Below are positions 21,280 to 63,438 of a DNA stretch of 64,000 nucleotides, one piece after another. A model generated the notes under the pieces. It did not search any database, had not been told where the DNA came from, and saw nothing but the letters and a program-made list of their open reading frames with translations. Origin of the DNA: Candidatus Altiarchaeota archaeon (GTDB lineage: Archaea; Altiarchaeota; Altiarchaeia; IMC4; QMZM01); contig JAFGDV010000002.1 of NCBI GenBank assembly GCA_016931955.1, positions 32,001 through 96,000 of the forward strand. The letters are read 5' to 3'. The stretch's first letter is position 1. Every line of letters begins with the position of its first letter. Both the position numbers and the translations under genes were made by a program.

Positions 21280-23412
21280 TCAGATTCTTTCATTACCTAG
21301 TTTTAATCGTCCCGTGTTTCCTATGTCATCAAAGCTTCTAGCTCCAAATTGGCCTTGCTCTCTTATCTTGAACTTGGAAACAACGGTCTTCAGCTCCTCG
21401 GCGCTGAGGTTGAATTGTTGAGCTGTCTTTGACACCTGCTGCATGGAGGCTGTGACGCTCTGCACTGAAGAGGATACCTCCTCAGAGCTGGCCGCGTTTT
21501 CTTGAGCTACCTCTGCCATCTCAACCAGTGAGCTGGTCACACCCTGTACTAGGTCGGGTATTGCTTCGAATGACTTCATCGCCTCTTTTACGGCGGCTAT
21601 ACCTTCCTCGACCTGCTTTGTGTTGTCATCCATTGTGCTGACTGCATGTGATATCTCGTTCTGTATGTCCGTTATCAAACCCGCAATCTGTTCGCTTGCG
21701 CCTCTCGAGTCCTCGGCGAGCTTCCGTACCTCGTCTGCTACAACCGCGAATCCTCTTCCAGCTTCACCTGCTCTTGCGGCCTCAATCGCTGCGTTCAGCG
21801 CCAGTAGGTTGGTCTGCTCTGCTATGTCCTTGATCGTGTCCACGATCCTACCTATCTCCTCTGACTTTCCGCCAAGTGATCCGATCTTTGAAGCGCTTTC
21901 CTTTGATGTAACGCTTATCTGAGCCATCTTTTCGTTCACGAGCTTGGCTGACTTGCTTCCTTCTTCGGCGCTCTCTGCTGTTTTCTTGGCTAATTCCTGC
22001 GACTCTGTGGCCCCTTGTGAAACGATCTGCACCCCTTTGACGATCTCCTGCATTGTCGAAGCTACTTGTTCCATCGCCGCATTTGTTTCCTCGGACGACG
22101 CTGAAAGCTCCTCAGCAGCTACTGCTGTTGAAGTGGCGTTATTCTTTATGTTTCCTATCAGATCCATGAGGTTGCTGGCCATTGTCGCGAATGCATTACC
22201 TATCATACCTACCTCATTCTTAGCGGATATGCCAACGACATCTAGGGTAAGATCACCAGCTGCTACACGCTGCATCTGCCTGACTATCAGGTTAAGCCGG
22301 TTGGTCAGGAAGTTCGCGAAGAAGTAAGCCGCCAGTGAACCGAGTACTATAGCCAGTGCACACACCATTATCGTCATGTCCTGAATCTGTATTATCCCAT
22401 CATCGAAGTCTTCCCCGTAGGCGCTTGAAGCGATGACCCATTCCCACTCATCGAAATATGCGAAGGCTGCAAGCTTGCTCGAAGCCCTGCTTTCTCCTTT
22501 ATTCGCCCACGTGTAACGGTATACGTCTGTCTCTCCCTCACTCAGGGCTGTTGCCTTGTCTATTATCTCTTGTATGAAGAGGGTTCCATCATCCAACTTC
22601 GAATTGATGATGTTCTGTCCATCGCTCTCCCTCTTGTATGAGAGAACATAGTTCCCTTTTGTGTCAAGTATCCAGATGTATCCCCGCTCTCCTATGACTA
22701 CCTTGGCGAGGTTGCCCTTCAGTGTTTCCTGATACTCATTCTCAGGCACGCCAACGTATAGGACGCCTATCACCTTATTGCTTTCATCCTTTATTGGTTC
22801 ATAAGCGCTTAGGTAGTACCCAGTCACCACGAATGCTCTTCCGTAGTAGGTCTGACCCCTCATCACAGTCTGATAAACCTCTGAATCAGATGGGATGTAT
22901 GTTCCAACAGCCCTTGAACCATCCAGGTTAAGGACATTGGTTGATATCCTCAACAGCCCGTTAGGGATGACTTGGAATACTGTCGCTGTCCCGCCCACCA
23001 TGCTCTGGATTTCGTCAACGATCTCGTAGTTGTAAGCAAGCTGCTTTTCGCCTATCTTCATCTTTGAGATGGTTACTGGCTGGCTGCCTTGGGTTACCTG
23101 GTTTACGGCGGTGAACTCCATTGTCTCCATTGGATCCAAGTAGGGCCTGCCATAGCCATACATAACGCTGCTGGCAACCCTCAGATCAGAGTTCACCTTG
23201 CTCTGCGCCACCTCATAGATGTTCTGAACATCCTTTGAGATTATCAGGGCTTGCTCTTGCAGCATTCCTTCGATCTGATTGAAGGTCTCTCTACTGGTCG
23301 AATCATAGCTGATGTAACCAAGCGTTACTACTGGTATCGACACCAGCAAGATGCAGATAGCCATCAGTTGCCATCTAATACTTATATCATTAAATATGTT
23401 TTTGATGTTCAT
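21280..23412 (-). CDS. methyl-accepting chemotaxis protein (TM, Cache_3-Cache_2-like, TM, HAMP, MA)
   Basis: [38 protein letters not shown] hairpin tip; RISTNV..RAVGT Cache motif. Confidence 0.95.
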
Positions 23413-45973: not shown

Positions 45974-46858
45974 ATGACAGAAGCTGAAAATCAATCCGCT
46001 ACATACGCTTTTTCTATTACAGTATTGACTAGGGCAATGGAGGCTGGGGAGGAGGTTATGGGTTCCGGTGCTACTGTTTTATTACGTAGATTCGGTAAAC
46101 CCGTCAGCAGGATTCTATTGGGTAGTGAACGCTTTGAGAGGAGTGGAACAGTCGATCTGCAGAAAGCAGCTGAGGAAGCTAAGAGGGGCATATCTGACAT
46201 AAAGACCTTCGGGGATACGGAGATACAAAGTGCTGGAGGGGATGTTGTTTCACTTATACAGAAGGGTTGTTTAAGGCGGATTGAGGAATACGGAAAGAAT
46301 CCTGGGGGGATGAAGTCGTGTATCCTCTGCATGGGTTTGATAGAAAGCTTTTTTAGGGATGCTACGGGTAATAGTGCTCTTAGAGCAACACTTGACCGTT
46401 TTGATAACGATAACTGTTATATATCAGTGAAGCAATGGGGTTCTGGAGCAGGTGCTGGTCCGGCTGAAGTGGACGTGGTGGATATTGCCAAGGCTTTTGA
46501 GATATACAACTTCCTACTGAAGACATTCGCTGCGAAAGCTGATGAAAAGGTCTTTGGTGGATCTAAGATGTTCATGCGAGGCCTACAATCCACGCTGACT
46601 GAACTGAAGAGCTCAGAGAGTGGTATGCCAGCAATAGCGATAAAGAATGATTTTTCAGTGGATGCACCCGGCTGTAAGGATTCCAAGAAACTGGCGAAGT
46701 ATATGAATATCGCCATTAAGAGTACGATGAATTCCATTGCAGATGAGCTTAATCCAAAGGTAGTGGATGGTATCGGAGCCTTTTTGGACAAGGAAATACA
46801 CACTAAGTTCAGTGCAGATGCGGAGAAACTCAATATATCAAATGTCTTGAAGGGATAA
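45974..46858 (+). CDS. V4R-like domain protein with helical C-terminal domain
   Basis: Cys pattern GCL...SCILCMGLI...NCYI resembles V4R; RBS GGAGG upstream. Confidence 0.6.
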   Translation: MTEAENQSATYAFSITVLTRAMEAGEEVMGSGATVLLRRFGKPVSRILLGSERFERSGTVDLQKAAEEAKRGISDIKTFGDTEIQSAGGDVVSLIQKGCLRRIEEYGKNPGGMKSCILCMGLIESFFRDATGNSALRATLDRFDNDNCYISVKQWGSGAGAGPAEVDVVDIAKAFEIYNFLLKTFAAKADEKVFGGSKMFMRGLQSTLTELKSSESGMPAIAIKNDFSVDAPGCKDSKKLAKYMNIAIKSTMNSIADELNPKVVDGIGAFLDKEIHTKFSADAEKLNISNVLKG

Positions 46859-46885
46859 AATAAAAAAAATGTGGAGGAAAAAAAA

Positions 46886-47932
46886 ATGGTTGACGCAAAA
46901 ACTAAATTGCTGATATTCTTTGTTGTTGTAGGTATTATACCCGTAGTTGTGATGGGCGGTAGCATGTTTTTAATGATGGGTTACCTTGACTCAAGGATGA
47001 CTGCGGATGCGCAGAGCAAGGTCACAACGTTTTTGGGGATAGCTAATGCTGTCTATAATGAAGAATTAGATGATGTTAAGAGGACTGCAGTTGCTGCCAG
47101 CTTGCAGGATAGTGTGGGTAGTTCTCTGAGAACGGGCACAGTTGCAGCAGATTTGCAGCCTTTGTTAGATAAGATGGTCGATGAGTCGGAGATAGATCAA
47201 CTGACTGTTGTTGATAAGAGTGGAAGGGTCATCATAAGGGCAACCACAGATGCCAAGGGGGATGATATGTCTTCAAAGCCCTGGATTACGGCAGCATTGA
47301 AGGGGCAAACCCTCTTATTTACAAGGATTACTCCGGAGGCTGAGCTTGCATTAGACGGTCTCACAGAGCAGGCGCGCTTGGATTTTGTAGAAAGCCCAAC
47401 TGCGAAGCCGACAACCAAAACAGTAGAGAAAGATGGTATGGTACTCACCGCTGTTACGCCTGTGATGGATGATTCAGGAAATGTTATCGGAGCTGTTGTA
47501 GCGAGTAATCTGCTGACAAAGAACTATGAGATCGTAGATAAGGCAAAGGCAGTCTATGGAGAGAAGGGAGGCCCGACGGTTACGATATTCCAAAGCGATC
47601 TTAGGATCTCAACGAATGTTATGAGGGAAGGCAAGCGAGCGATTGGTACACGGGTTTCTGCGGAAGTGTATGATCAGGTCTTGGGTAAGGGCCAGACCTA
47701 TGTGGGACGCGCATTCGTCGTTAACGACTGGTATATAACAGCATATGAGCCAATAAAGGACGTTGAGGGAAATATCATTGGTATACTGTATGTTGGTCTG
47801 CTTGAGAGCGAGGTTAAATCAGAGATTTCGTCGTTCCTCAACTCAGCCATATTTATGAGGCTGATCATTGGTGCAGTGATTGCGATAGTTTCAGCCCTCG
47901 TTGTAATGCAGGTTTATCTGAGGAGTCTTTGA
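46886..47932 (+). CDS. 2-TM Cache-domain sensor without cytoplasmic output domain
   Basis: TM1, Cache motif TIFQSDLRISTNV..RAIGT..GRAFVVNDWYITAYEPI..GILYVG, TM2, then stop (YLRSL*). Confidence 0.85.
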   Translation: MVDAKTKLLIFFVVVGIIPVVVMGGSMFLMMGYLDSRMTADAQSKVTTFLGIANAVYNEELDDVKRTAVAASLQDSVGSSLRTGTVAADLQPLLDKMVDESEIDQLTVVDKSGRVIIRATTDAKGDDMSSKPWITAALKGQTLLFTRITPEAELALDGLTEQARLDFVESPTAKPTTKTVEKDGMVLTAVTPVMDDSGNVIGAVVASNLLTKNYEIVDKAKAVYGEKGGPTVTIFQSDLRISTNVMREGKRAIGTRVSAEVYDQVLGKGQTYVGRAFVVNDWYITAYEPIKDVEGNIIGILYVGLLESEVKSEISSFLNSAIFMRLIIGAVIAIVSALVVMQVYLRSL

Positions 47933-47946
47933 TCCAGGTAAAAAAA

Positions 47947-48207
47947 ATGAACGAAGAATTTGATTTCAGAGGGAAGATAGATCCAATGCTTACAGTGGAG
48001 ACGATAAAGAAGGTTAAAGAGTACAGGGCTAAGCTGGACAGCGGCGAAATAAAGGAGGAGGTTGTCCTTTCCTTTACTATCGACCATCAACCTGCGACGA
48101 GAAGCATTCCAGACACCCTGTCTAAGACGGGTCTCGGAGATTATAGGATATTGAGGGCGAAGGATAAGCAATTATGGAAGATCGTGGTAACGTTAAAGAA
48201 AACATAG
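47947..48207 (+). CDS. TusA/SirA-like protein lacking the persulfide Cys
   Basis: FDFRGKIDPML vs DxRGxxCPxP; DHQPATRSIP; WKIVV C-terminal strand. Confidence 0.65.
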   Translation: MNEEFDFRGKIDPMLTVETIKKVKEYRAKLDSGEIKEEVVLSFTIDHQPATRSIPDTLSKTGLGDYRILRAKDKQLWKIVVTLKKT

Positions 48208-48218
48208 GAGGTAAAAAA

Positions 48219-49373
48219 ATGGTTGAAGACTGGGAAGAAATCGAACGCGGAACGGGGGCCAAGGCGGCAGCCCGTGTAAAAACTGAGTCAATGAGTACCC
48301 CCACAATCGGTAGAACAAAGAAGACCGGCGTTAGGACTAAGTTGATGCTGGCTTTTATAGCGACTGCAGTTATACCTGTTCTTGTGATGAGCGTATCCCT
48401 GTGGATGATGGCCGGGGATATCAACAATTTCATGACAGACAACGCACAGGAAAAAGTCAACACGTTTTATGGGATAACTGACCAAGTATATCAGAGCGAG
48501 ATGCATAACGTGAAGGAAACTGCAATAGCGGCGGCTTCATTAGACTCTGTCGCTGATCTGGTACAGGGTACCGGTAACAAGGATAGTGTGAGAAAGATCC
48601 TGTTGGGATTACAGAGTGCTGAGGAAGTCGGCTATTTGACGGTGTTAGATGCAAGCGGTAGGGTTGTGCTCAGGTCTAATCCAAACTCTGCCTCAGGTGA
48701 TACAAAATCAGATGCATGGATCAGGACTGCCTTAGCAGGAACTGCGACAGTATCCTCTGAGGTGCTTAATGCAAACACCCTCGCAGAGTATGGACTTGAC
48801 GTGCAATCAAAGTTGTTTTTAATCACAACTGATAACGCCAAACCGACGAGTAGAACAGTGGAGACCTCGAGCTTGTCCATAGTCGCCGCCGCACCCATAA
48901 AGGATAGCACAGGACGTGTTATTGGCGCAGTTGAAGTCGGTGAACCCCTAACAAGGAATTATAAGATAGTGGATAACGCCAAGGACATATATGGTACAAG
49001 CGGCAGTCCAACAGTTACTATCTTCCAGGATGATCTGCGGATTTCAACGAACGTTAAGACAAAAGGCGGTTCAAGGGCAATCGGTACGCGTGTGTCTGTG
49101 CCAGTGTATGAACAGGTTTTAACCAGGGGCCAAGAATATGTGGGACGCGCATTCGTCGTAAACGACTGGTATATGACATTGTATAAGCCAATAAAGAGCG
49201 GAGGCGGCAGTACTGTTGGAATACTCTATGTGGGTCTCCTTGAGAGGGATATTAAGACAGACATTGGAAACTTTATCTCCCAACAGGTTTCTAACCGGAT
49301 ACTTTTCGGTGGAGTGATTGCTTTTATATTAGCTATGCTTTGTATGTGGCTCTACCTGAGAGGGTTGGAATAA
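48219..49373 (+). CDS. second 2-TM Cache-domain sensor without output domain
   Basis: Paralog of 46886-47932; ends YLRGLE*; RBS GGAGGT. Confidence 0.85.
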   Translation: MVEDWEEIERGTGAKAAARVKTESMSTPTIGRTKKTGVRTKLMLAFIATAVIPVLVMSVSLWMMAGDINNFMTDNAQEKVNTFYGITDQVYQSEMHNVKETAIAAASLDSVADLVQGTGNKDSVRKILLGLQSAEEVGYLTVLDASGRVVLRSNPNSASGDTKSDAWIRTALAGTATVSSEVLNANTLAEYGLDVQSKLFLITTDNAKPTSRTVETSSLSIVAAAPIKDSTGRVIGAVEVGEPLTRNYKIVDNAKDIYGTSGSPTVTIFQDDLRISTNVKTKGGSRAIGTRVSVPVYEQVLTRGQEYVGRAFVVNDWYMTLYKPIKSGGGSTVGILYVGLLERDIKTDIGNFISQQVSNRILFGGVIAFILAMLCMWLYLRGLE

Positions 49374-49384
49374 ACCTAGTACCC

Positions 49385-49412
49385 CTCTTTCTTCTTTATT
49401 TTTTTCCTTTTT
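49385..49412 (+). terminator. T-rich archaeal terminator-like tract
   Basis: ctctttcttctttatttttttccttttt immediately after the stop. Confidence 0.45.
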
Positions 49413-49542
49413 CCTCTTATCAAAGCCGATCTGCCAGACTACTTTCCATATTTTGTTACAGCTTAAGCCCTCAACATACCTGTTCACGTTTGAAATCAGG
49501 CGCATGGACAATAGTGGGATAGCACAGTTCAAAAAACAAAGG

Positions 49543-50328: not shown

Positions 50329-50337
50329 GTGTTTAGG

Positions 50338-50877
50338 ATGGTAATCAAAAGAGAAACGTACACCGATTACGAGATAGAGTTCGCGATGAGGGAGAAGGAA
50401 GACTTCGAGAAATCGATGCAGGCCCTGATGGACATTGTCGGCGCAACAGTAAGCACTCTCGAATCGGTGGCTGGGATGGGTGCCAGAGCCATGAGCTACA
50501 TGGCGGGCAAGAACATCGGCAAGAGGATAGGTAGAATGATCGGCAGAAAACCCGACGTTGAAACCGCGATAGATGCCCTCACAGACCTGATGGGCGACGC
50601 GTGGAAGATCGAAATATGGAAGCCTGCAACCGAAAAGGAATTGGTGAAGAAGACTGACAAAGGCTTCCAGTGCAAGCTTCTCTTCAGGGACTGCATAGTA
50701 AGGCAGACCCTTGAGAGGGAGGCGATACCGCAGAAGGGGACCATGTGCTACCTCACCAATGGATACGTGTGCGGAGCCTTGGAGGTGATGCTTGGAATGC
50801 GCGGCAAACTTGATTTCCTCCACAGCGGAAACAACGCTTGCCTGAAGGATCTGAATTTAACTAGGGAGGGCGTGTAA
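50338..50877 (+). CDS. V4R domain protein
   Basis: AGKNIG helix, DCIVR...MCYLTNGYVCGALE...NAC. Confidence 0.75.
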   Translation: MVIKRETYTDYEIEFAMREKEDFEKSMQALMDIVGATVSTLESVAGMGARAMSYMAGKNIGKRIGRMIGRKPDVETAIDALTDLMGDAWKIEIWKPATEKELVKKTDKGFQCKLLFRDCIVRQTLEREAIPQKGTMCYLTNGYVCGALEVMLGMRGKLDFLHSGNNACLKDLNLTREGV

Positions 50878-54946: not shown

Positions 54947-56533
54947 ATGTTCTCCAAGTTATTCAATTGGTTGGTTAAGCGGATGCCGTACACTTCCGCC
55001 CTTGTCTTGATCTGTTTTACCTGGGCTATCCTGGTCACCGTCTTCGGAGCCTTACTGGTCATCATCGGCGCCAGGGAAAATTTTGAGGTTACTGGAACCA
55101 GAGACCTATATTTGATGCTCTATTTCGGTGGTGTTTCAATGGCTTCCACCCTCATCCTGATAGAATACAGCATCCTCCGCGTTTTCGGGATCAGGTTTGA
55201 GAGGAAAGAGTTCACTCCACTAAACGACAACATCGTGGACGGTCACTTCAGAGAGAATATCTCAGATGATGACCTTGTGAAGGCCTACTATGCTCTCGTC
55301 AACCTAACCAAGTGGAAGGAGACACGGGATGTCGTCTATGCTCAGATAGTCGTCTTCGGCGCCGCCTTCGGGGAGTGGCTTATCAGCGGACAGTTGATGA
55401 ACGTGCCCATCATCTTTGTAGGCAGCGAAATCGCGGTTTTTTCGCTTTACGTGTATGCTGCCGTCTTCCATGACACCATAACCTCTCCAGCTAGGAGGGA
55501 ATGCAAGCTTCTCATGGCTGAACGAGGAATACCATTCAAAGAAACCCCCATGTTGAGTCTGAGGACTAAGTCAAGGTTCTTCATTGCCTTGATTGGCTTG
55601 GCTCTTCTAGCGATCCTTATCCTGATAAAGCCCTTTAATCCGTTGATTGTGGTCCTCGCCTTGATAACCCTCGCCATAGTCAGCATGTTAAACGACTTCG
55701 TATCTAAGTCTATTCAAACAGAATTTGAGGAGATTAAGGAGTCAGCCCATAGCTTGGCGGAAGGCAAAAAGGCGCTGTTTTTCTCAGGCAGCTCTGACAG
55801 GGAGATGTTTGATCTAACGCAGAGTTTGAATAAAACCGCCGGAGAGATAACAGATTACCAGAGATCCCTTAAAGAAAAGATAAATGAATTGGAGGAGTAT
55901 ATGTCTGTGGCTTCACACGACCTCCAGCAGCCCCTGGCGACGATTCAGGCTTATACGCAGATTCTTAAGGTGGTTGAACAGGATGATGAGAAACTGAAGA
56001 AAGTCAAGGTCGTTGAATCCCAGGCAGACTTCATGAGGGAGATGCTCAATGATCTACTGGAGTACTCCCGCGCCAAAAAGACTATGGAATACGAAGAAGT
56101 GAAGCTCCATAAAGTCCTTGAGGAAATCAGAGAACACCTGAAAGTGCAGATACAAGAAAAAGAAGCTAAGATAATATTCAAAGACATTCCTGAAACAATA
56201 ATAGGACAACCTAAGAGAATAGAGCAACTATTCCTGAACCTAATAGGCAATGCAATAAAGTACTCAGACAAACCGATAATAGAAGCAGGCTGCACCGACC
56301 GAGAACAGGAATACGAATTCTACGTAAAAGACAACGGAAGAGGAATAGAACAAAAATACCACGAAAAAATATTCAAACCATTCTGGAAGCTCGGCAAAGA
56401 ACCAGGAACCGGAATGGGTCTCGCAATATGCAAAACCGTGGTCGAAAACCACGGAGGAAAAATCTGGATAGAATCCACCCCAGGAAAAGGCTCAACATTC
56501 AAATTCACAATACCAAAAAAACAGGGGGGATGA
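54947..56533 (+). CDS. membrane sensor histidine kinase HK1
   Basis: About 6 TM, HAMP-like region, SHDLQQPL, NLIGNAIKY, DNGRGI, GTGMGL. Confidence 0.93.
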   Translation: MFSKLFNWLVKRMPYTSALVLICFTWAILVTVFGALLVIIGARENFEVTGTRDLYLMLYFGGVSMASTLILIEYSILRVFGIRFERKEFTPLNDNIVDGHFRENISDDDLVKAYYALVNLTKWKETRDVVYAQIVVFGAAFGEWLISGQLMNVPIIFVGSEIAVFSLYVYAAVFHDTITSPARRECKLLMAERGIPFKETPMLSLRTKSRFFIALIGLALLAILILIKPFNPLIVVLALITLAIVSMLNDFVSKSIQTEFEEIKESAHSLAEGKKALFFSGSSDREMFDLTQSLNKTAGEITDYQRSLKEKINELEEYMSVASHDLQQPLATIQAYTQILKVVEQDDEKLKKVKVVESQADFMREMLNDLLEYSRAKKTMEYEEVKLHKVLEEIREHLKVQIQEKEAKIIFKDIPETIIGQPKRIEQLFLNLIGNAIKYSDKPIIEAGCTDREQEYEFYVKDNGRGIEQKYHEKIFKPFWKLGKEPGTGMGLAICKTVVENHGGKIWIESTPGKGSTFKFTIPKKQGG

Positions 56534-56534
56534 G

Positions 56535-56900
56535 ATGGTTAAGGTTCTCGTAGTTGACGACTATGCTCCGCTTAGAGAGATTGCAGTCATGATCCTGAAG
56601 TCTAAGGGTTTCGATGAAGTGTTTGAAGCGGAGAGCCCGGAGGAGGGGATGAGGTTATTCGAGGAACATAAGCCAGAGCTTGTCATATTAGATATAATAA
56701 TGCCTGTCACCAATGGAATAGACTTGGCTGCGGAGATCAAGAAAGTTAATCCAGAAACTAAGGTGGTCATGCTCAGTGTCTTGGGCGAGAACACTCATGG
56801 AAAGAAACGAGTAGAGGAGGTGGCTGATCTTTACTTGGTGAAACCTTTAACCCATGAAAAAGTCGATAAAATCAAGGAGATACTAGACTCAGGGCCTTGA
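56535..56900 (+). CDS. single-domain response regulator
   Basis: VVDD, ILDIIMP, MLS, KP. Confidence 0.92.
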   Translation: MVKVLVVDDYAPLREIAVMILKSKGFDEVFEAESPEEGMRLFEEHKPELVILDIIMPVTNGIDLAAEIKKVNPETKVVMLSVLGENTHGKKRVEEVADLYLVKPLTHEKVDKIKEILDSGP

Positions 56901-56907
56901 TAAAAAA

Positions 56908-58569
56908 ATGTTCTTTAGATTGTTCGAATGGTTGGTGAAGAGGACTCCTTATACCCTAGCATTTATTACTCTTGGTTTTTCTTGGACTGCATTGGTTGCG
57001 AGTTTTGGCGCTTTATTGATTATCATTGGGGCTGATTTTGAAGCCACTGGGACAAGGGATATTTTTCTCTTGCTTTTGGCGGAAACGGTAGGAATTGCTT
57101 CCTTCCTCACCTTCTGGGAATACGGTATCTTCCGGCTTGTTGGGATAAAATGGGAGAGAAGAGAATTCACGGTTCTTAACGAGAATATCATCCAAGGTCA
57201 TTTTCGGCAGGATGTTTCCAATGAAGCGCTTTTAGAGGCCTATGATTCTCTTAAACAAATAACAAGATGGACAGTACTCAAAAATATTCAATACGGTCAG
57301 ATAGTAGCTTCTTTTACTGCCTTGGGGGAATGGTTGTTTAGTGGTCAATTAACAAATGTCCCAATCATATTTGTTGGGCTTAACATTGCTACTATTTCAC
57401 TTTATATATATGGGGCTGTCTTCTATGACTCAATGACCTCCCCAGCTAGGAGGGAGTGTAAGAGGCTTTTAGCTCAGAGGGGCATTCAATTTGATGAGTC
57501 TTCTTTCCTGAGCCTAAGGACTAAATCAAGGTTCTTCCTTACCTTGATAGGCTTCGCTCTTTTAGCAATGTTGATCATCATCAAGCCATTTAACCCGCTT
57601 AGTGTAGTGCTCGCCGTTACTACCTTAGTTATAATCGGCTTACTGAACGACTTGGTATTTAGGTCTATCTACATGGAATTCACTGAAGTCGAAGAATCGG
57701 CCAAGAATCTAGCGGAAGGCAGGGAAGCATTATTTTTCTCAGGCAGCTCAGACAAAGAAATACTTGACCTGTCAGAGAGCCTGAATGAAACCGCTCAAGA
57801 GATCAGGGAATATGAAAAAGCCCTTGAGGAGGAGAAGGCCTCCCTAGAGATCAAGGTAAAGGATAGAACCAAGGAGTTGGAGGAGCTAACCAAGAGCCTT
57901 GAGGAGAAGGTAGAGAAAAGAACCCATGAGCTCCAAGACAGAATTGAAGAGCTTGAAGAGTATACTTCTGTTACTTCCCACGACCTGCAACAACCCCTAG
58001 CGACAATTCAGGCATATACGCAGCTTAGTGTGCAGAATGCTAAGGTGATTGAGTCTCAGGCGAACTTCATGAGGAATTTACTTGAGGACTTGTTAAGCTA
58101 TTCACGGATAAAGGAGAAGGCGCCCTCCGAAGAAGTAAAACTCCTGGAAGTCTTAGATGAAGCAAAAGAGCACCTGTCAGCGCAGATACAAGAGAAAGAA
58201 GCGGAAATAACACTCAAAGACATTCCAGACACCATCACTGGACAGCCTAAGAGGATAGAGCAACTATTCTTGAACCTGATCGGGAACGCAATAAAATACA
58301 CTGATGATAAGCCGGTGATTGAAGTAGGATGCACAGAACAAGAACAAGAATACCTATTCTGGATCAGAGACAATGGTAGAGGAATCGAACAAAAATACTT
58401 CGAGAAAATATTCAAACCCTTCTGGAAGCTCGGCAAAGAACCCGGAACCGGAATGGGGTTGGCGATCTGCAAAGCAGTAGTGGAAAACCACGGAGGAAAA
58501 ATCTGGATAGAATCCACCCCAGGAAAAGGCTCAACATTCAAGTTCACAATACCCAAGAAGAAAACATAG
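56908..58569 (+). CDS. membrane sensor histidine kinase HK2
   Basis: Paralog with long S-helix linker; H, N, G boxes. Confidence 0.93.
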   Translation: MFFRLFEWLVKRTPYTLAFITLGFSWTALVASFGALLIIIGADFEATGTRDIFLLLLAETVGIASFLTFWEYGIFRLVGIKWERREFTVLNENIIQGHFRQDVSNEALLEAYDSLKQITRWTVLKNIQYGQIVASFTALGEWLFSGQLTNVPIIFVGLNIATISLYIYGAVFYDSMTSPARRECKRLLAQRGIQFDESSFLSLRTKSRFFLTLIGFALLAMLIIIKPFNPLSVVLAVTTLVIIGLLNDLVFRSIYMEFTEVEESAKNLAEGREALFFSGSSDKEILDLSESLNETAQEIREYEKALEEEKASLEIKVKDRTKELEELTKSLEEKVEKRTHELQDRIEELEEYTSVTSHDLQQPLATIQAYTQLSVQNAKVIESQANFMRNLLEDLLSYSRIKEKAPSEEVKLLEVLDEAKEHLSAQIQEKEAEITLKDIPDTITGQPKRIEQLFLNLIGNAIKYTDDKPVIEVGCTEQEQEYLFWIRDNGRGIEQKYFEKIFKPFWKLGKEPGTGMGLAICKAVVENHGGKIWIESTPGKGSTFKFTIPKKKT

Positions 58570-58579
58570 AAGATAAAAA

Positions 58580-60244
58580 ATGTTTTATGGGATATTTAAT
58601 TGGTTTGTGAAGAGGCTTCCGTATAGTCTAGCAGTGATGATCTTCAGTTTTATTTTGAGTGCTTTGATGATCGTCTTCGTTGCCTGGTTTATTCTGATCG
58701 GGACTGATATTGAGTCTGAAGGAACCGCTGGTGTTGTGATATCCGCTCTTTTCTTGGCAGGGTTTGTCTCCTTCATATTATGTATCATAGAATACGGTTA
58801 CGGCATCTCTTTTGGACTGGAGGGGAAAAGAAAGGGTTTCAAGGTCCTCAACGACAACATCATAGAGGGGCGCATTAGACAGGATATATCTGACCAGGCA
58901 CTCTTAGAGGTCTACGACGCCCTTAAAAAAATAAACAGGTGGATATTGAGCAGACATATGTTATATGCTAACTCCATAGCAACCGCTGGTGCTTTAGCAG
59001 AACTGCTGACAAGTGGGAATTTAATGAATGCAGTTATCATTTGGGCTATTGGATTAATCTGGGGCAATATAGCAGTCATAACAGGAATCGCCTATGACCT
59101 ATTCACTCTCCCAGCTAGGCGTGAATGCAAGCTGCTCTTGAATTCGAGAGGCATCCCCTTCAAGGACGACGCCTATTTCCTTGGTCTTAGGATTAAATCC
59201 GACCTATTCATCATCTTAACTGCCTTTGGTTTGGGTGTGATTTTATTGATTTTCCGCCCAATCACCTGGGAGCTTGTAGTATCTGCCGCCATCATCCTCC
59301 TCACCGTTGTCTTATTAACTAAGCTAGTATTCGAGACCATCTATGCCGCGTTATTGGAGATTAAAGACTTAGCCAGTGATCTGGAGCATGGAAGGAAGGT
59401 TTCTTTCTTCACCGGCAGCTTGGACCGGGAAATCGTGGACCTGTCTAAGAGCCTGAATGTCGCAGCTGATGAGATCTACTTTACTAAGAAGGCCCTTGAG
59501 GAAGAGAAGACTTCCCTGGAGCTTAAGGTTGAAGATAGGACTAAGGAGTTGAAGGGACTTAATGAGAGCCTGGAGGAGAAGGTAAAAGAGAGAACTAAAG
59601 AGCTTGAGGGGAAGATAGGTGAGTTGGAGGAGTATACCTCCGTCACCTCCCATGACCTCCAGCAGCCACTTGCTGCGATTCAAGCCTACACACAGCTCAC
59701 TCAAAAAAATGCTAAGATGATAGAATCCCAGGCGAACTTCATGAGAGAGTTGCTTGAGGACTTGTTAAGTTATTCACGAATAAAGGAGAAGGCACCCTCT
59801 GAGGAAGTGAAACTCCAAGATATATTGAAAGAGGTAAAAGAACACCTGAAAGTGCAGATACAAGAAAAAAACGCAGAGATAACACTCAAAGACATACCTG
59901 AAACAATAACAGGACAACCTAAGAGGATAGAGCAACTATTCCTAAACCTGATCAGCAACGCATTGAAATACACCGACGGAAAAACAACAATTGAGGTCGG
60001 CTGCGAGGGGGGAGAGAGGGAATATGAATTCTGGGTGAAGGACAATGGTATAGGAATCGAACAAAAATACTTCGAGAAAATATTCAAACCCTTCTGGAAG
60101 CTCGGCAAAGAACCCGGAACCGGAATGGGCCTCGCCATATGCAAAGCAGTAGTGGAAAACCACGGAGGAAAAATCTGGATAGAATCCACCCCAGGAAAAG
60201 GCTCAACATTCAAATTCACAATACCCAAGAAAAATGTTCCTTAG
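58580..60244 (+). CDS. membrane sensor histidine kinase HK3
   Basis: Paralog with long S-helix linker; H, N, G boxes. Confidence 0.93.
   Translation: MFYGIFNWFVKRLPYSLAVMIFSFILSALMIVFVAWFILIGTDIESEGTAGVVISALFLAGFVSFILCIIEYGYGISFGLEGKRKGFKVLNDNIIEGRIRQDISDQALLEVYDALKKINRWILSRHMLYANSIATAGALAELLTSGNLMNAVIIWAIGLIWGNIAVITGIAYDLFTLPARRECKLLLNSRGIPFKDDAYFLGLRIKSDLFIILTAFGLGVILLIFRPITWELVVSAAIILLTVVLLTKLVFETIYAALLEIKDLASDLEHGRKVSFFTGSLDREIVDLSKSLNVAADEIYFTKKALEEEKTSLELKVEDRTKELKGLNESLEEKVKERTKELEGKIGELEEYTSVTSHDLQQPLAAIQAYTQLTQKNAKMIESQANFMRELLEDLLSYSRIKEKAPSEEVKLQDILKEVKEHLKVQIQEKNAEITLKDIPETITGQPKRIEQLFLNLISNALKYTDGKTTIEVGCEGGEREYEFWVKDNGIGIEQKYFEKIFKPFWKLGKEPGTGMGLAICKAVVENHGGKIWIESTPGKGSTFKFTIPKKNVP
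59839..59922 (+). repeat. 84-bp exact repeat shared by HK3 and HK5 (copy at 63039-63122)
   Basis: agaacacctgaaagtgcagatacaagaaaaaaacgcagagataacactcaaagacatacctgaaacaataacaggacaacctaa in both genes. Confidence 0.8.
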
Positions 60245-61865
60245 ACTATTCAACTGGCTGGTTAAGAAAAAGGATGTGCCTTATACCTTTGCAGTGATTT
60301 TCCCAGGCAGTTCTTTCGCTATCTTGGGTGCTGTTTTAGGCGGCATCATCCTACTCCGCCGAGCCGATTTCGAGTCTACTGGAACTGGGATGATATTCGT
60401 CCTCAGTCTTACCCTTCTGATGACTTTCGTCGTTTCGCGTACGCTTATAAGGGCTGGAGCTCTTAGGGTTTTTGGAACCATTTTAGGGGAGAGGAGAGAG
60501 TTTAGTATCCTTAACGACAACATAATCAGCGGCGTTATTCGTTCTGATGTATCTACCTCAACACTCTTGCAAGTATATGGCTCACTCACTCAATTGAATA
60601 ATCATATGATGAGGATGCATCTAAGTGACATATGTGTCGTAGTCCCAAATGTTGCGGCAATAGAGTTCATTGCTAGCTGGTTTATCACTGGTAGCTTCCA
60701 GCTTACAAATACCTTAATGATACTTTTGGTCGGAGCCATAATAGCTGCCTTAGATATCATCTGCGATCTGCCGTTGTGGGAGCTGTCGATTTATCCGACC
60801 CGGAAGGGATGTAAGACCCTCTTAGCTGAGAGGGGCGTTCATTTCGAAGAAACCCACTTCATGAGCTTGAGGGCTAAGTCAAGATTCTTCATCATATTGA
60901 TGGCTATTATATTGTTGGCTATGTGGACACTCGCTGAATCCCCAAACCTTGACCTCATAGTTTTTTCTATTATCATCTTATCCCTTACTGTCTTATTAAG
61001 CGATATGGTGTTCCAATCATTTTATAAAGCATTCGCTGAGGTTGAGGAATCCGCAAGAGACCTGGCGAAAGGCAACAAGGTCCTGTTTTTCTCAGGCAGC
61101 TCAGACAGGGAAATATTAGATTTGTCAAAGAGCCTGAACATCTCCGCCGACGAAATCTATTCCACCAGAAAAGAACTTGAACAAGAGAAGCTTTCCCTTC
61201 AAGAGAAGATAGATGAACTTGAAGAATATACATCAGTTACGTCACATGATCTGCAGCAGCCGTTGGCGACGATCCAAGCCTACACGCAGCTACTTAAGGC
61301 TGCGGAAAAGGATGAAGTAAAAAAGAAAAACGTGGACGTAGTAGAGTCGCAGGCAAATTTCATGCGAAGCCTCCTTGAGGATCTGCTGAATTATTCGAGG
61401 ATGAAGAAGGAGATGCCTTACGAGGAAGTGGATGTCAAAAAAATATTGGAGGGAGTTAGAGAACACCTCAACCCCGAAATAGAGAAAAAAGAAGCGGAGA
61501 TAACATTCAGAGATTTGCCCGATAAAATCATCGCACAACGAAAGGCGATAACACAACTATTCCACAACCTCGTAGACAACGCATTAAAGTACTCAGATGA
61601 GAAACCAGTGGTGGAGATAGGCTGCGAAGAACGTGAGCAAGAATATGAATTCTACGTCCGGGACAATGGAATAGGAATAGAAGAACACTTCCACGAGAAG
61701 ATTTTTAAACCATTCTGGAAGTTGGGTAAAGAACCCGGCACAGGAATGGGGTTGGCGATCTGTAAAGCCGTGGTAGAAAACCACGGAGGCAGGATATGGG
61801 TAGAATCAGAACCCTGGAGGGGGTCAACATTCAAATTCACAATACCAAAGAAAAATGTTCTTTAA
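60234..61865 (+). CDS. membrane sensor histidine kinase HK4
   Basis: Paralog; H, N, G boxes; overlaps HK3 stop. Confidence 0.93.
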   Translation: MFLRLFNWLVKKKDVPYTFAVIFPGSSFAILGAVLGGIILLRRADFESTGTGMIFVLSLTLLMTFVVSRTLIRAGALRVFGTILGERREFSILNDNIISGVIRSDVSTSTLLQVYGSLTQLNNHMMRMHLSDICVVVPNVAAIEFIASWFITGSFQLTNTLMILLVGAIIAALDIICDLPLWELSIYPTRKGCKTLLAERGVHFEETHFMSLRAKSRFFIILMAIILLAMWTLAESPNLDLIVFSIIILSLTVLLSDMVFQSFYKAFAEVEESARDLAKGNKVLFFSGSSDREILDLSKSLNISADEIYSTRKELEQEKLSLQEKIDELEEYTSVTSHDLQQPLATIQAYTQLLKAAEKDEVKKKNVDVVESQANFMRSLLEDLLNYSRMKKEMPYEEVDVKKILEGVREHLNPEIEKKEAEITFRDLPDKIIAQRKAITQLFHNLVDNALKYSDEKPVVEIGCEEREQEYEFYVRDNGIGIEEHFHEKIFKPFWKLGKEPGTGMGLAICKAVVENHGGRIWVESEPWRGSTFKFTIPKKNVL

Positions 61866-63438
61866 GTTATTCAACTGGCTGGTGAAGAGGGTTCCATATG
61901 TATTAGCTGTTTTACTCCCCGTCGACATATGGAGTGTATTAATGGGAGTTCCAGGCTTTGTCCTTATCTGGGTTCTCGAAATCGATTTAATGGGGAATAC
62001 CACAACAGGAGGCCAGTTCATCTTTGTCTGGTTTTTCTTTCTTTTCCTTGCCTTCGTGGGGGCTGCTTTGGAGATGGGTATTCTGAGGCTCTTTGGAATA
62101 AAATTTGAGAGAAAACACATAAGGCCTCTTAACGAGAACATCATTGATAATCATATTCGGCCGAATATTTCAACACCTGAACTTCAACAAGTTTACTTCG
62201 CCCTCAATAAGTTCGATAGGTGGGTGATAAAAACGCATATTAGATATGTTTCTGCTGTCGTATTTTGTGACGCTTTTGTGATGGGTTTAATTACCGGCGA
62301 CTGGGATCTTGCCCTCTTCATCTTCGAGGTCGCATTCCTCAGTGGTCCTTTGGCTTTGATATGTGGTATCCCTCTTTGGGAGTTGTTTGTGGCTCCCGTA
62401 CGTAAGGAATGTAAGATGCTTCTACGTCAGAGAGGTGTGGATTTTGAGGAAAAGCCGTTCATGAGCTTGAGGATTAAGTCGAAGTTTTTCACTATCTTGG
62501 TTGGTTTTTCTCTTTTGGCGTTCTTAATTCTCCTCCGTTCCTGGGATCCTTTTTTTATAGTATTTACGATTATCATCTTACTTATCCTTGCTTTTCTAAG
62601 CGACTTGATATTTAAATCAATCTACTCCGCCTTCTTAGAAATCGAGGAATCTGCCAAGAATCTGGCTGAAGGAAAGAGCGTATCATTCTTTTCAGGCAGC
62701 TTTGATAAGGAGATACTTGACTTATCACAAAGCCTAGACGAAACCGCTGGAGAGATAAGAGACTACCAGAAATCCCTTGAAGAAAAGATAAAGGAGTTGG
62801 AGGAGTACATGTCTGTTGCTTCACACGACCTGCAACAGCCCCTTGCTGCGATCCAGGCCTACACTCAACTTCTTAAATCGGTCGAAATGAACGAAACAGG
62901 TAAAAGGAATGTGGGAGTGATTGAGTCTCAGGCAGACTTCATGCGCGATCTACTGAACGATCTGCTGGAGTATTCTAGGGCGAAGAAGACCATGGAATAC
63001 GAGAAAGTGAAGCTCAGAGAGGTCTTGGAAGAAGTCAGAGAACACCTGAAAGTGCAGATACAAGAAAAAAACGCAGAGATAACACTCAAAGACATACCTG
63101 AAACAATAACAGGACAACCTAAAAGAATCAGTCAATTATTCCTGAACCTCATAAGCAACGCAATAAAATACACCGAAGGAAAGCCAGTGGTTGAGGCAGG
63201 CTGCGTGGAGAGAGAGGAGGAATATGAATTCTGGGTGAAGGACAATGGTATAGGAATCGAAGAGAAATACTTCAACAAAATATTCAAACCCTTCTGGAAA
63301 CTGGGAAAAGAACCCGGAACCGGAATGGGGTTGGCGATCTGCAAAGCCGTGGTCGAAAACCACGGAGGCAGAATCTGGATAGAATCAGAACCAGGAAAAG
63401 GCTCAACATTCAAATTCACAATAGAGAAGAGGAGTTAA
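61855..63438 (+). CDS. membrane sensor histidine kinase HK5
   Basis: Paralog; H, N, G boxes; overlaps HK4 stop. Confidence 0.93.
   Translation: MFFKLFNWLVKRVPYVLAVLLPVDIWSVLMGVPGFVLIWVLEIDLMGNTTTGGQFIFVWFFFLFLAFVGAALEMGILRLFGIKFERKHIRPLNENIIDNHIRPNISTPELQQVYFALNKFDRWVIKTHIRYVSAVVFCDAFVMGLITGDWDLALFIFEVAFLSGPLALICGIPLWELFVAPVRKECKMLLRQRGVDFEEKPFMSLRIKSKFFTILVGFSLLAFLILLRSWDPFFIVFTIIILLILAFLSDLIFKSIYSAFLEIEESAKNLAEGKSVSFFSGSFDKEILDLSQSLDETAGEIRDYQKSLEEKIKELEEYMSVASHDLQQPLAAIQAYTQLLKSVEMNETGKRNVGVIESQADFMRDLLNDLLEYSRAKKTMEYEKVKLREVLEEVREHLKVQIQEKNAEITLKDIPETITGQPKRISQLFLNLISNAIKYTEGKPVVEAGCVEREEEYEFWVKDNGIGIEEKYFNKIFKPFWKLGKEPGTGMGLAICKAVVENHGGRIWIESEPGKGSTFKFTIEKRS

Follow-up and report, generated by a model that had tools for sequence, protein, structure and literature searches.

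Introduction

Cache domains are the commonest extracellular sensors in prokaryotes. Cache proteins that lack an output domain are known as a minority, more than 90% of Cache domains being reported as fused to an output (bioRxiv 10.64898/2026.02.01.703092), and the Pfam Cache models are described as built solely from proteins having outputs (PMC4822843). Here we describe a four-gene operon that encodes two output-less Cache proteins, which we call Cache1 and Cache2, and two soluble proteins, the products of genes 1 and 3. The operon occupies positions 45,974 to 49,373 of a 64,000-nucleotide stretch from a Candidatus Altiarchaeota archaeon (assembly GCA_016931955.1, contig JAFGDV010000002.1, positions 32,001 to 96,000, forward strand); this whole stretch, part of contig C5, is referred to below as the window. 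Among Rfam models, with clan competition applied, the archaeal one fits the partial SSU rRNA of this genome best. We tentatively suggest, as a reading that is possible if still short of probable, that an operon once used for sulfur import has been remodelled here and now codes for an extracellular sensor that acts in trans.

Two groups of proteins resemble Cache1 and Cache2 in their sensors. The first comprises Cache-HAMP-HisKA-HATPase kinases such as those of 796 residues from a Methanobacteriaceae genome (L012), 681 residues (L009) and 660 residues (L022), which have the same sensor, built of a transmembrane (TM) helix, a dCache_3-like module, an sCache_3_3 module and a second TM helix (TM2). 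The window proteins are 36-45% identical to these kinases over the whole sensor and keep most family-conserved residues, but stop 5-6 residues past TM2, before the proline that opens HAMP, and have no transmitter. The second is a clade of bacterial 353-residue proteins, annotated as “cache domain-containing protein,” that have the same architecture with a stop within a few residues and are 37-42% identical to the window proteins; they form a separate, well-supported clade, however, and are monocistronic, without an N-terminal tail and without TusA-like or V4R-fold neighbours. Full-text literature searches found no functional study of the bacterial clade; nor did they find work on this TM-Cache-TM family or on any chimera of a Cache protein with a YeeE operon.

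Other systems resemble the locus in how a sensor may work without its own output. A Cache-HAMP receptor lacking an enzymatic output is reported to signal through an operon-encoded kinase; this Cache_heme-HAMP (CHH) protein is likewise a non-enzymatic Cache receptor proposed or shown to use a separately encoded operon partner, but it is described as using HAMP as a docking platform and a Ser/Thr kinase as partner, in place of the ~37-residue tail and the TusA-like and V4R-fold proteins of the window (bioRxiv 10.64898/2026.05.25.727664). The Campylobacter jejuni receptor Tlp7 (Cj0952c/Cj0951c) consists of a separate sensor half and signalling half and is reported to be functional; its signalling half is encoded by the neighbouring gene, which a recent stop codon created, whereas the window locus has none (PMC3461409). 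The skeleton of the operon derives from the TusA-like and YeeE module of YeeE-YeeD (TsuA-TsuB) thiosulfate uptake, from which it differs in that no transporter was found here and the cysteine of the carrier’s CPxP motif is an aspartate. The YeeE-like protein SoxT1B is reported to act as a signal-transduction unit, and this variant offers a precedent for YeeE-type modules serving signalling (PMC11582611).

Two Cache proteins without an output domain

The operon consists of four same-strand open reading frames (ORFs), with only few-base gaps or overlaps between neighbours in the ORF list. Its features are as follows.

45974..46858, + strand: gene 1, soluble protein of 294 residues, ATG at 45974; N-domain residues 1-157, C-domain residues ~170-294
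46886..47932, + strand: Cache1, 348 residues, ATG at 46886; TM1, double-Cache ectodomain, TM2, 5 residues, stop
47947..48207, + strand: gene 3, TusA/YeeD-like protein of 86 residues, ATG at 47947; Cys of CPxP replaced by Asp
48219..49373, + strand: Cache2, 384 residues, ATG at 48219; N-terminal tail, TM1, double-Cache ectodomain, TM2, 6 residues, stop
48219..48329, + strand: N-terminal tail of Cache2, ~37 residues, cytoplasmic; the first ~13 resemble the openings of YeeE-type transporters
49374..49430, + strand: T-rich tract directly 3′ of the Cache2 stop, a possible archaeal oligo-T terminator

The start codons of all four genes are likely the ATGs read from the junction sequences, and for Cache1 a database gene call (P0001) likewise gives 348 residues. 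A hydropathy scan placed one TM segment at the N-terminus and one at the extreme C-terminus of each Cache protein and none in genes 1 and 3, so the first-pass annotation was right that the Cache genes alternate with two soluble ones.

That annotation had also described both receptors as TM-Cache-TM proteins that end right after TM2 with no HAMP, MA or kinase domain, and Pfam, hydropathy, alignment and tblastn all agree. The Pfam scan that it proposed found sCache_3_3 in Cache1 (7.7e-37, 126 bits) and Cache2 (1.5e-34, 119 bits; cut-off 28.8 bits), dCache_3 in Cache1 (1.6e-07), and weaker dCache_3 and dCache_1 matches over the module that precedes sCache_3_3. Each protein thus has the significant profile match flanked by two TM helices that marks the Cache superfamily. 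The same scan gave no HAMP, MCPsignal, HisKA, HATPase or any further domain in either protein, which are therefore neither sensor histidine kinases (no HisKA or HATPase) nor methyl-accepting chemotaxis proteins (MCPs; no MCPsignal). Cytoplasmic parts of Cache1 amount to ~7 and 5 residues, and an alignment of 18 sequences shows both Cache proteins ending where the HAMP proline of their kinase relatives begins. Searching 45.9-49.6 kb by tblastn in every frame with segments of three related kinases that run from HAMP to HATPase returned nothing at E≤10; matches came only from kinases at 55.7-63.4 kb and 38 kb and from the HAMP of the window’s MCP at 22.2 kb.

The truncation is not accidental, as the annotation had argued, nor is it recent. 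P0002, the nearest match in the database and the product of a partial gene on a contig of 1 kb, is 74% identical to Cache1 and also ends in YLRSL, and the two paralogs, at 47% identity, have the C-terminal YLRxL in common (YLRSL and YLRGL), with no output remnant behind it. Since P0002 and such distant paralogs end alike, we conclude from these alignments that the stops after TM2 are old and genuine and that the output-less form is real. Seventy-five columns are at least 90% conserved in 94 kinase-linked sensors; Cache1 keeps 64 of them and Cache2 56, while the kinases themselves keep 62-75 (median 73). Several of the departures are common to Cache1, Cache2 and P0002, which looks, at the level of sequence, like lineage-specific change and not random decay.

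The link drawn by the annotation between these sensors and that of the MCP at 21280-23412 stands for one module and fails for the whole. An sCache_3_3 module is common to both (45% identity, query residues 190-323), but the MCP sensor as a whole is of another type, Cache_3-Cache_2 (2.1e-83; MCPsignal 2.9e-44), whereas in the window Cache proteins sCache_3_3 comes after a dCache_3-like module, and it is among histidine kinases, and not among MCPs, that their full-length relatives are found. A search of the genome (1.55 Mb, 92% complete) gave no kinase with a sensor of this family; its four matches were the two Cache genes, the MCP and one protein that consists of a sensor only.

This last protein, encoded on contig C17 (L004:953-1909, - strand), is a third output-less Cache protein of the genome. 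It has 318 residues with a complete Cache_3-Cache_2 domain (1.9e-79) and a lipoprotein-like N-terminus, and ends where TM2 of the MCP begins; Thr-rich secreted proteins are encoded on either side. As a copy of the chemoreceptor’s sensor, it may buffer ligand or act as a decoy.

Cache2 in the place of a sulfur transporter

We searched the genomes of 40 relatives of the same family and order (60-97% complete, among them a same-genus genome that is 73% complete). Homologs of the gene 1 N-domain were found in three of them and at six metagenome loci. At all nine loci a 156-158-residue gene resembling gene 1 is followed by a TusA-like gene of 93-94 residues with a Cys-Pro motif and then by a tailed YeeE-type transporter. 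This transporter has ~490-502 residues, of which 148-491 match Sulf_transp (YeeE/YedE; 4e-59), while its first ~147 form an acidic, Pro/Ala-rich cytoplasmic tail with two copies of a Trp-acidic motif. All three relatives that have the gene resembling gene 1 have a tailed YeeE, these being few and related genomes; two other relatives have a tail-less YeeE, and both of those genomes gave no gene 1 homolog. On this gene order, genes 1 and 3 are not partners newly made for the Cache proteins but stem from a set of genes that is conserved beside a YeeE-type transporter in related archaea.

In the window, Cache2 stands directly after the TusA-like gene, and a protein alignment matches its N-terminal ~13 residues to the start of the YeeE tails. 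In a DNA alignment collinearity extends from the 3′ end of the TusA-like gene over the junction and the start codon to ~13 codons into the reading frame, past which the sequences diverge. A six-frame translation of the genome (3.1 million residues) contains the motif W-[ED]-[EQ]-[IL]-[ED]-[KRS]-G a single time, in the Cache2 tail. Cache2 itself gave no match to Sulf_transp and lacks the YeeE/YedE membrane domain, having only the ~13 tail residues in common with the transporter, and two queries found no YeeE homolog in the genome. The comparison thus shows Cache2 as the probable replacement of a YeeE-type transporter, of which the start codon and ~13 residues at the beginning of the tail survive.

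Two further observations concern the relatives’ loci. Most of the ancestral loci (e.g. L006 and L089-L093) have one or two Roadblock/LC7 genes immediately 5′ of the V4R/Bet3-fold gene. In one of the relatives with a tail-less YeeE (G006, locus L118) the TusA-YeeE pair is followed by a 370-residue protein with a PAS domain and a DUF2507/YslB match that is below the cut-off (E 0.0089), which hints that YeeE modules in this family may be tied to sensory proteins.

A TusA-like protein without its cysteine

The description of gene 3 as TusA-like is probably right. Pfam TusA matches it at 1.3e-3 and 19 bits, under the cut-off of 28.6 bits, and the ESM Atlas gave no usable match. It is, however, 46-49% identical to seven relatives’ TusA-like proteins of 93-94 residues encoded beside YeeE, all with the Cys-Pro motif, and the profile of its family matches TM0983 at E 5e-4 in a full-length comparison with the PDB (the YeeD part of a YeeE-YeeD fusion matches weakly, at 0.088). 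In the column of the CPxP cysteine, gene 3 and its 83%-identical homolog P0125 have Asp, and all seven aligned relatives have Cys. YeeE-dependent thiosulfate uptake is reported to require this cysteine of YeeD (PMC11073785). Because it is Asp in gene 3, a YeeD-style sulfur relay cannot operate here, and the conservation of a TusA-fold protein without its catalytic cysteine points to a role other than sulfur relay.

Fold of the gene 1 product

Gene 1 has no Pfam or NCBIfam match. An exhaustive profile-free search of 1.84 billion representatives returned only two matching clusters, P0122 (288 residues, 80% identical to gene 1 over its full length) and P0123 (156 residues, covering residues 1-152). 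AlphaFold2, given a 10-sequence alignment, modelled the protein with a mean predicted local distance difference test score (pLDDT) of 65 (~50-75 in the N-domain and ~80-87 in the C-domain); from the single sequence the pLDDT was only 37. With the modelled N-domain (residues 1-157), VIA-align found the phenol-sensing domains of PoxR (5fru, Z 12.2, 151 residues aligned) and DmpR (Z 11.3), the V4R protein MJ1460 (Z 10.9), Bet3/TRAPP and BcsD (Z ~10) and H-NOX (Z 7.7), and Foldseek returned the same families with a best E of 2.5e-3.

The first-pass label “V4R-like” therefore applies to the fold, through PoxR and MJ1460, and not to the Pfam family. The V4R model (PF02830) misses gene 1, a genome-wide scan at E≤1 giving 10 matches and none there, and hhalign against the V4R domains of the same genome gave P 6e-4 and a probability of 28%. 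By structural similarity over the whole domain, the N-domain has a V4R/Bet3/H-NOX-type fold, in a model that is itself of moderate confidence only. The C-domain is a predicted helical bundle that occurs only here and in the one 80%-identical homolog, joined by a Gly/Ala linker at the point where the relatives’ genes stop; it has no convincing relative, the best score in the ESM Atlas (0.79) being a lead only. Gene 1 showed no similarity to gene 3.

Proteins with V4R matches are also encoded in this genome. Five paralogous proteins of 393-420 residues, on contigs C31, C32, C35, C40 and C42, have two V4R matches each, some of them starting with a Cys-rich, zinc-ribbon-like segment, and there is a 134-residue protein with a single V4R domain.

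The sensor family and its output-less bacterial clade

Relatives of the sensor are encoded on 586 stretches among species-representative genomes. The best 80 of these 586 loci hold 73 kinases of 463-1063 residues, mostly 640-680, with HAMP-HisKA-HATPase confirmed by Pfam in four of them (L009, L012, L022 and L059), and five output-less genes of 353-356 residues (L027, L028, L033, L057 and L085); of the other two, L030 is a kinase broken by masked bases and L066 runs off its contig. We also searched for homologs that end after TM2, as the first-pass annotation had recommended, by a near-length search whose length window favours short forms; it gave 2150 proteins at E≤0.001 among 8000 candidates scored. 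Such homologs are common there: besides the window’s own two, 118 matches are listed, of which 96 are output-less (85 of 350-366 residues) and the other 22 continue into HAMP/HisKA.

The bacterial output-less genes, from metagenome-assembled genomes of Thermodesulfobacteriota/Syntrophaceae, form one clade of 23 rows with a Shimodaira-Hasegawa-like approximate likelihood ratio test (SH-aLRT) value of 100. They are monocistronic, and at four of the five loci listed above a carboxyltransferase gene diverges from them. The synteny is conserved, nearby genes coding for GreA, a glycosyltransferase-methyltransferase and a Mg-chelatase-like ATPase, and there is no adjacent signalling gene. In a quick tree Cache1, P0002 and Cache2 make up a clade of their own (SH-aLRT 100), whose nearest neighbour is the Methanobacteriaceae kinase (support 88, long branches).

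The quick tree suggested that output was lost independently in the archaeal lineage, an idea that we withdrew after the approximately unbiased (AU) test. A tree constrained to join all output-less proteins was not rejected (AU p 0.83) and scored 42 log-likelihood units better than the quick free tree, and for this reason we make no claim of independent truncation. As far as the trees go, the archaeal Cache genes may derive from bacterial genes of that clade that had lost their output beforehand.

A possible sensor acting in trans

The order of events that we propose starts from the ancestral operon that the comparison of loci shows, in which a gene for a V4R-fold protein is joined by those for a TusA/YeeD-like sulfur carrier and for a YeeE-type transporter with two Trp-acidic repeats in its N-terminal tail. 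A TM-double-Cache-TM gene would then have been acquired from the mostly kinase-linked, bacterial family, perhaps output-less on arrival. One copy, Cache2, would have taken over the place of the transporter body, retaining its start codon and ~13 tail residues, and a second copy, Cache1, would have been placed between genes 1 and 3. The TusA-like protein would have lost its catalytic cysteine to aspartate, and the V4R-fold protein would have gained its C-terminal helical domain. In the resulting module, Cache1 and Cache2 dimers would bind an extracellular ligand, and movement of the TM helices would alter the accessibility of the Cache2 tail and perhaps also of the YLRxL C-terminus. The tail would dock or release the Cys-less TusA-like adaptor, the V4R-fold protein or both, and so pass a signal to some effector. 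Here we infer binding, the direction of signalling, the ligand and the output alike.

Orthologs of three of the four genes are intact in another organism (P0002 at 74%, P0122 at 80% and P0125 at 83% identity). From the architecture, the age of the stops, the operon history, the loss of the cysteine and these three intact orthologs, we infer that genes 1 and 3 went on serving some purpose once the transporter had gone. It would be most economical if they did so together with the co-encoded membrane proteins, via the inherited tail. The first-pass annotation had proposed split receptors or co-receptors acting in trans; the history of the operon, as reconstructed from gene order and alignment, gives a concrete reason to expect that they may act in trans through the soluble proteins. 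The fullest form of the proposal is rather unlikely in our view: a receptor without a cytoplasmic domain that signals via a Trp-acidic tail captured from YeeE, contacting a Cys-less TusA-fold adaptor and a V4R-fold protein whose new helical domain would serve as the output.

Several points weigh against a sensor of this kind. No evidence of binding was found; a complex prediction for gene 1, gene 3 and the Cache2 tail had a score that was non-specific in one control, and we draw nothing from it. Of the two ancestral repeats just one survives in the tail, and of that one just its first half; the tail may be a neutral scar of insertion into the 5′ end of yeeE. Cache1 is nearly without cytoplasmic residues and has no tail at all, and Cache2 keeps fewer family-conserved positions than any of the kinases. 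The operon is rare, a Cache1 query having matched none of the 40 relatives’ genomes. Finally, the bacterial output-less clade, which the better-scoring tree joins to the archaeal proteins, has neither a tail nor partners like genes 1 and 3 and is monocistronic, so that the core function of the family needs neither gene.

A different explanation, to which we give a rather low probability, is that Cache1 and Cache2 are non-signalling, membrane-anchored extracellular binding proteins, serving in capture, buffering, protection or as a scaffold, with genes 1 and 3 as separate survivors of the sulfur operon. The large bacterial clade has this architecture without any signalling gene beside it, and most of the listed near-length matches are output-less; the genome’s own sensor-only protein on C17 is a lipoprotein-like copy of the MCP’s Cache domain (64% identity over 290 residues); and non-sensory roles are among those proposed for stand-alone Cache_heme proteins (bioRxiv 10.64898/2026.02.01.703092). 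An anchor, however, needs less than two TM helices and a juxtamembrane YLRSL/YLRGL end conserved between paralogs that are 47% identical. Nor does this explanation account well for genes 1 and 3, which are intact at 80-83% identity elsewhere though no transporter was found and the sulfur-carrying cysteine is gone.

Truncated receptors that heterodimerise act as co-receptors or modulators, and the Cache proteins could in this way join a complete receptor, within the membrane or in the periplasm, and tune it, be it the MCP at 21280-23412, one of the five tandem kinases at 54947-63438 or another kinase. The Cache module common to the MCP and the Cache proteins, the density of signalling genes in the window (kinase matches at 55.7-63.4 kb) and the reported function of C. 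jejuni Tlp7 as two proteins (PMC3461409) all agree with this. We nevertheless consider it unlikely, since the genome search turned up no kinase with this sensor family, the MCP sensor is of a different overall architecture, and there is no conserved kinase adjacency here or in the bacterial clade.

It is highly improbable that the locus is a wrecked sulfur-uptake operon with the Cache genes as functionless, truncated leftovers: the absence of a detected transporter, the loss of the TusA cysteine and the patchy occurrence of the operon (no Cache match in 40 relatives, the same-genus genome included) would fit decay, but all four frames are intact, three genes have GGAGG and gene 3 a weaker site, the three orthologs at 74-83% identity have the same stop and the same Asp, and the Cache1/Cache2 duplication is old, yet most conserved positions are kept (64 and 56 of 75).

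If the fullest form of the proposal holds, the locus would represent a previously undescribed receptor design and the conversion of a transporter into a receptor caught in the act, and the Trp-acidic tail would be identified as a docking motif of archaeal YeeE modules. It gives a handle on how output-less Cache proteins act, with a partner set and a candidate docking peptide that are defined by evolutionary history, beyond adjacency. It also brings to attention a large, unstudied bacterial clade of 353-residue output-less Cache membrane proteins.

Expression signals and genomic surroundings

The first-pass annotation gave each receptor its own ribosome-binding site and the operon a terminator. 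The former is correct: GGAGG lies 7-9 nucleotides 5′ of the ATG in gene 1, Cache1 and Cache2, with an A-run between in both Cache genes (GGAGG, A8 and ATG in Cache1; GGAGGT, A7 and ATG in Cache2), so that the string GGAGG(T)-A7/8-ATGGTTGA is common to the two. Gene 3 has CCAGGT, a weaker site than those of the other three genes. For the terminator only the T-rich tract with its T7 run was found, and a hairpin scan predicted no terminator after the Cache2 stop; the tract fits archaeal oligo-T termination.

All 366 of 366 sampled words of the stretch are present in an independent assembly of the probable source sample. The operon is divergent from a gene resembling isocitrate/isopropylmalate dehydrogenases. 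Downstream, after a 216-nucleotide spacer, lies a [NiFe]-hydrogenase cluster with a HycI-type protease, a ferredoxin, a 182-residue ORF and the small and large subunits. The HycI-like protease was uninformative as a synteny anchor (at most 36% identity in relatives). Hydrogenase adjacency was considered as a trait of the Cache kinase family and is not supported, signatures being present at only 2 of the 80 closest kinase loci in a motif scan of limited sensitivity. The 182-residue ORF (50329-50877, + strand), which separates the ferredoxin from the small subunit, drew no match from Pfam or NCBIfam and has no similarity to gene 1. Five tandem histidine-kinase genes (54947-63438, + strand), with HisKA/HATPase matches in tblastn, lie 5.6 kb downstream of the operon.

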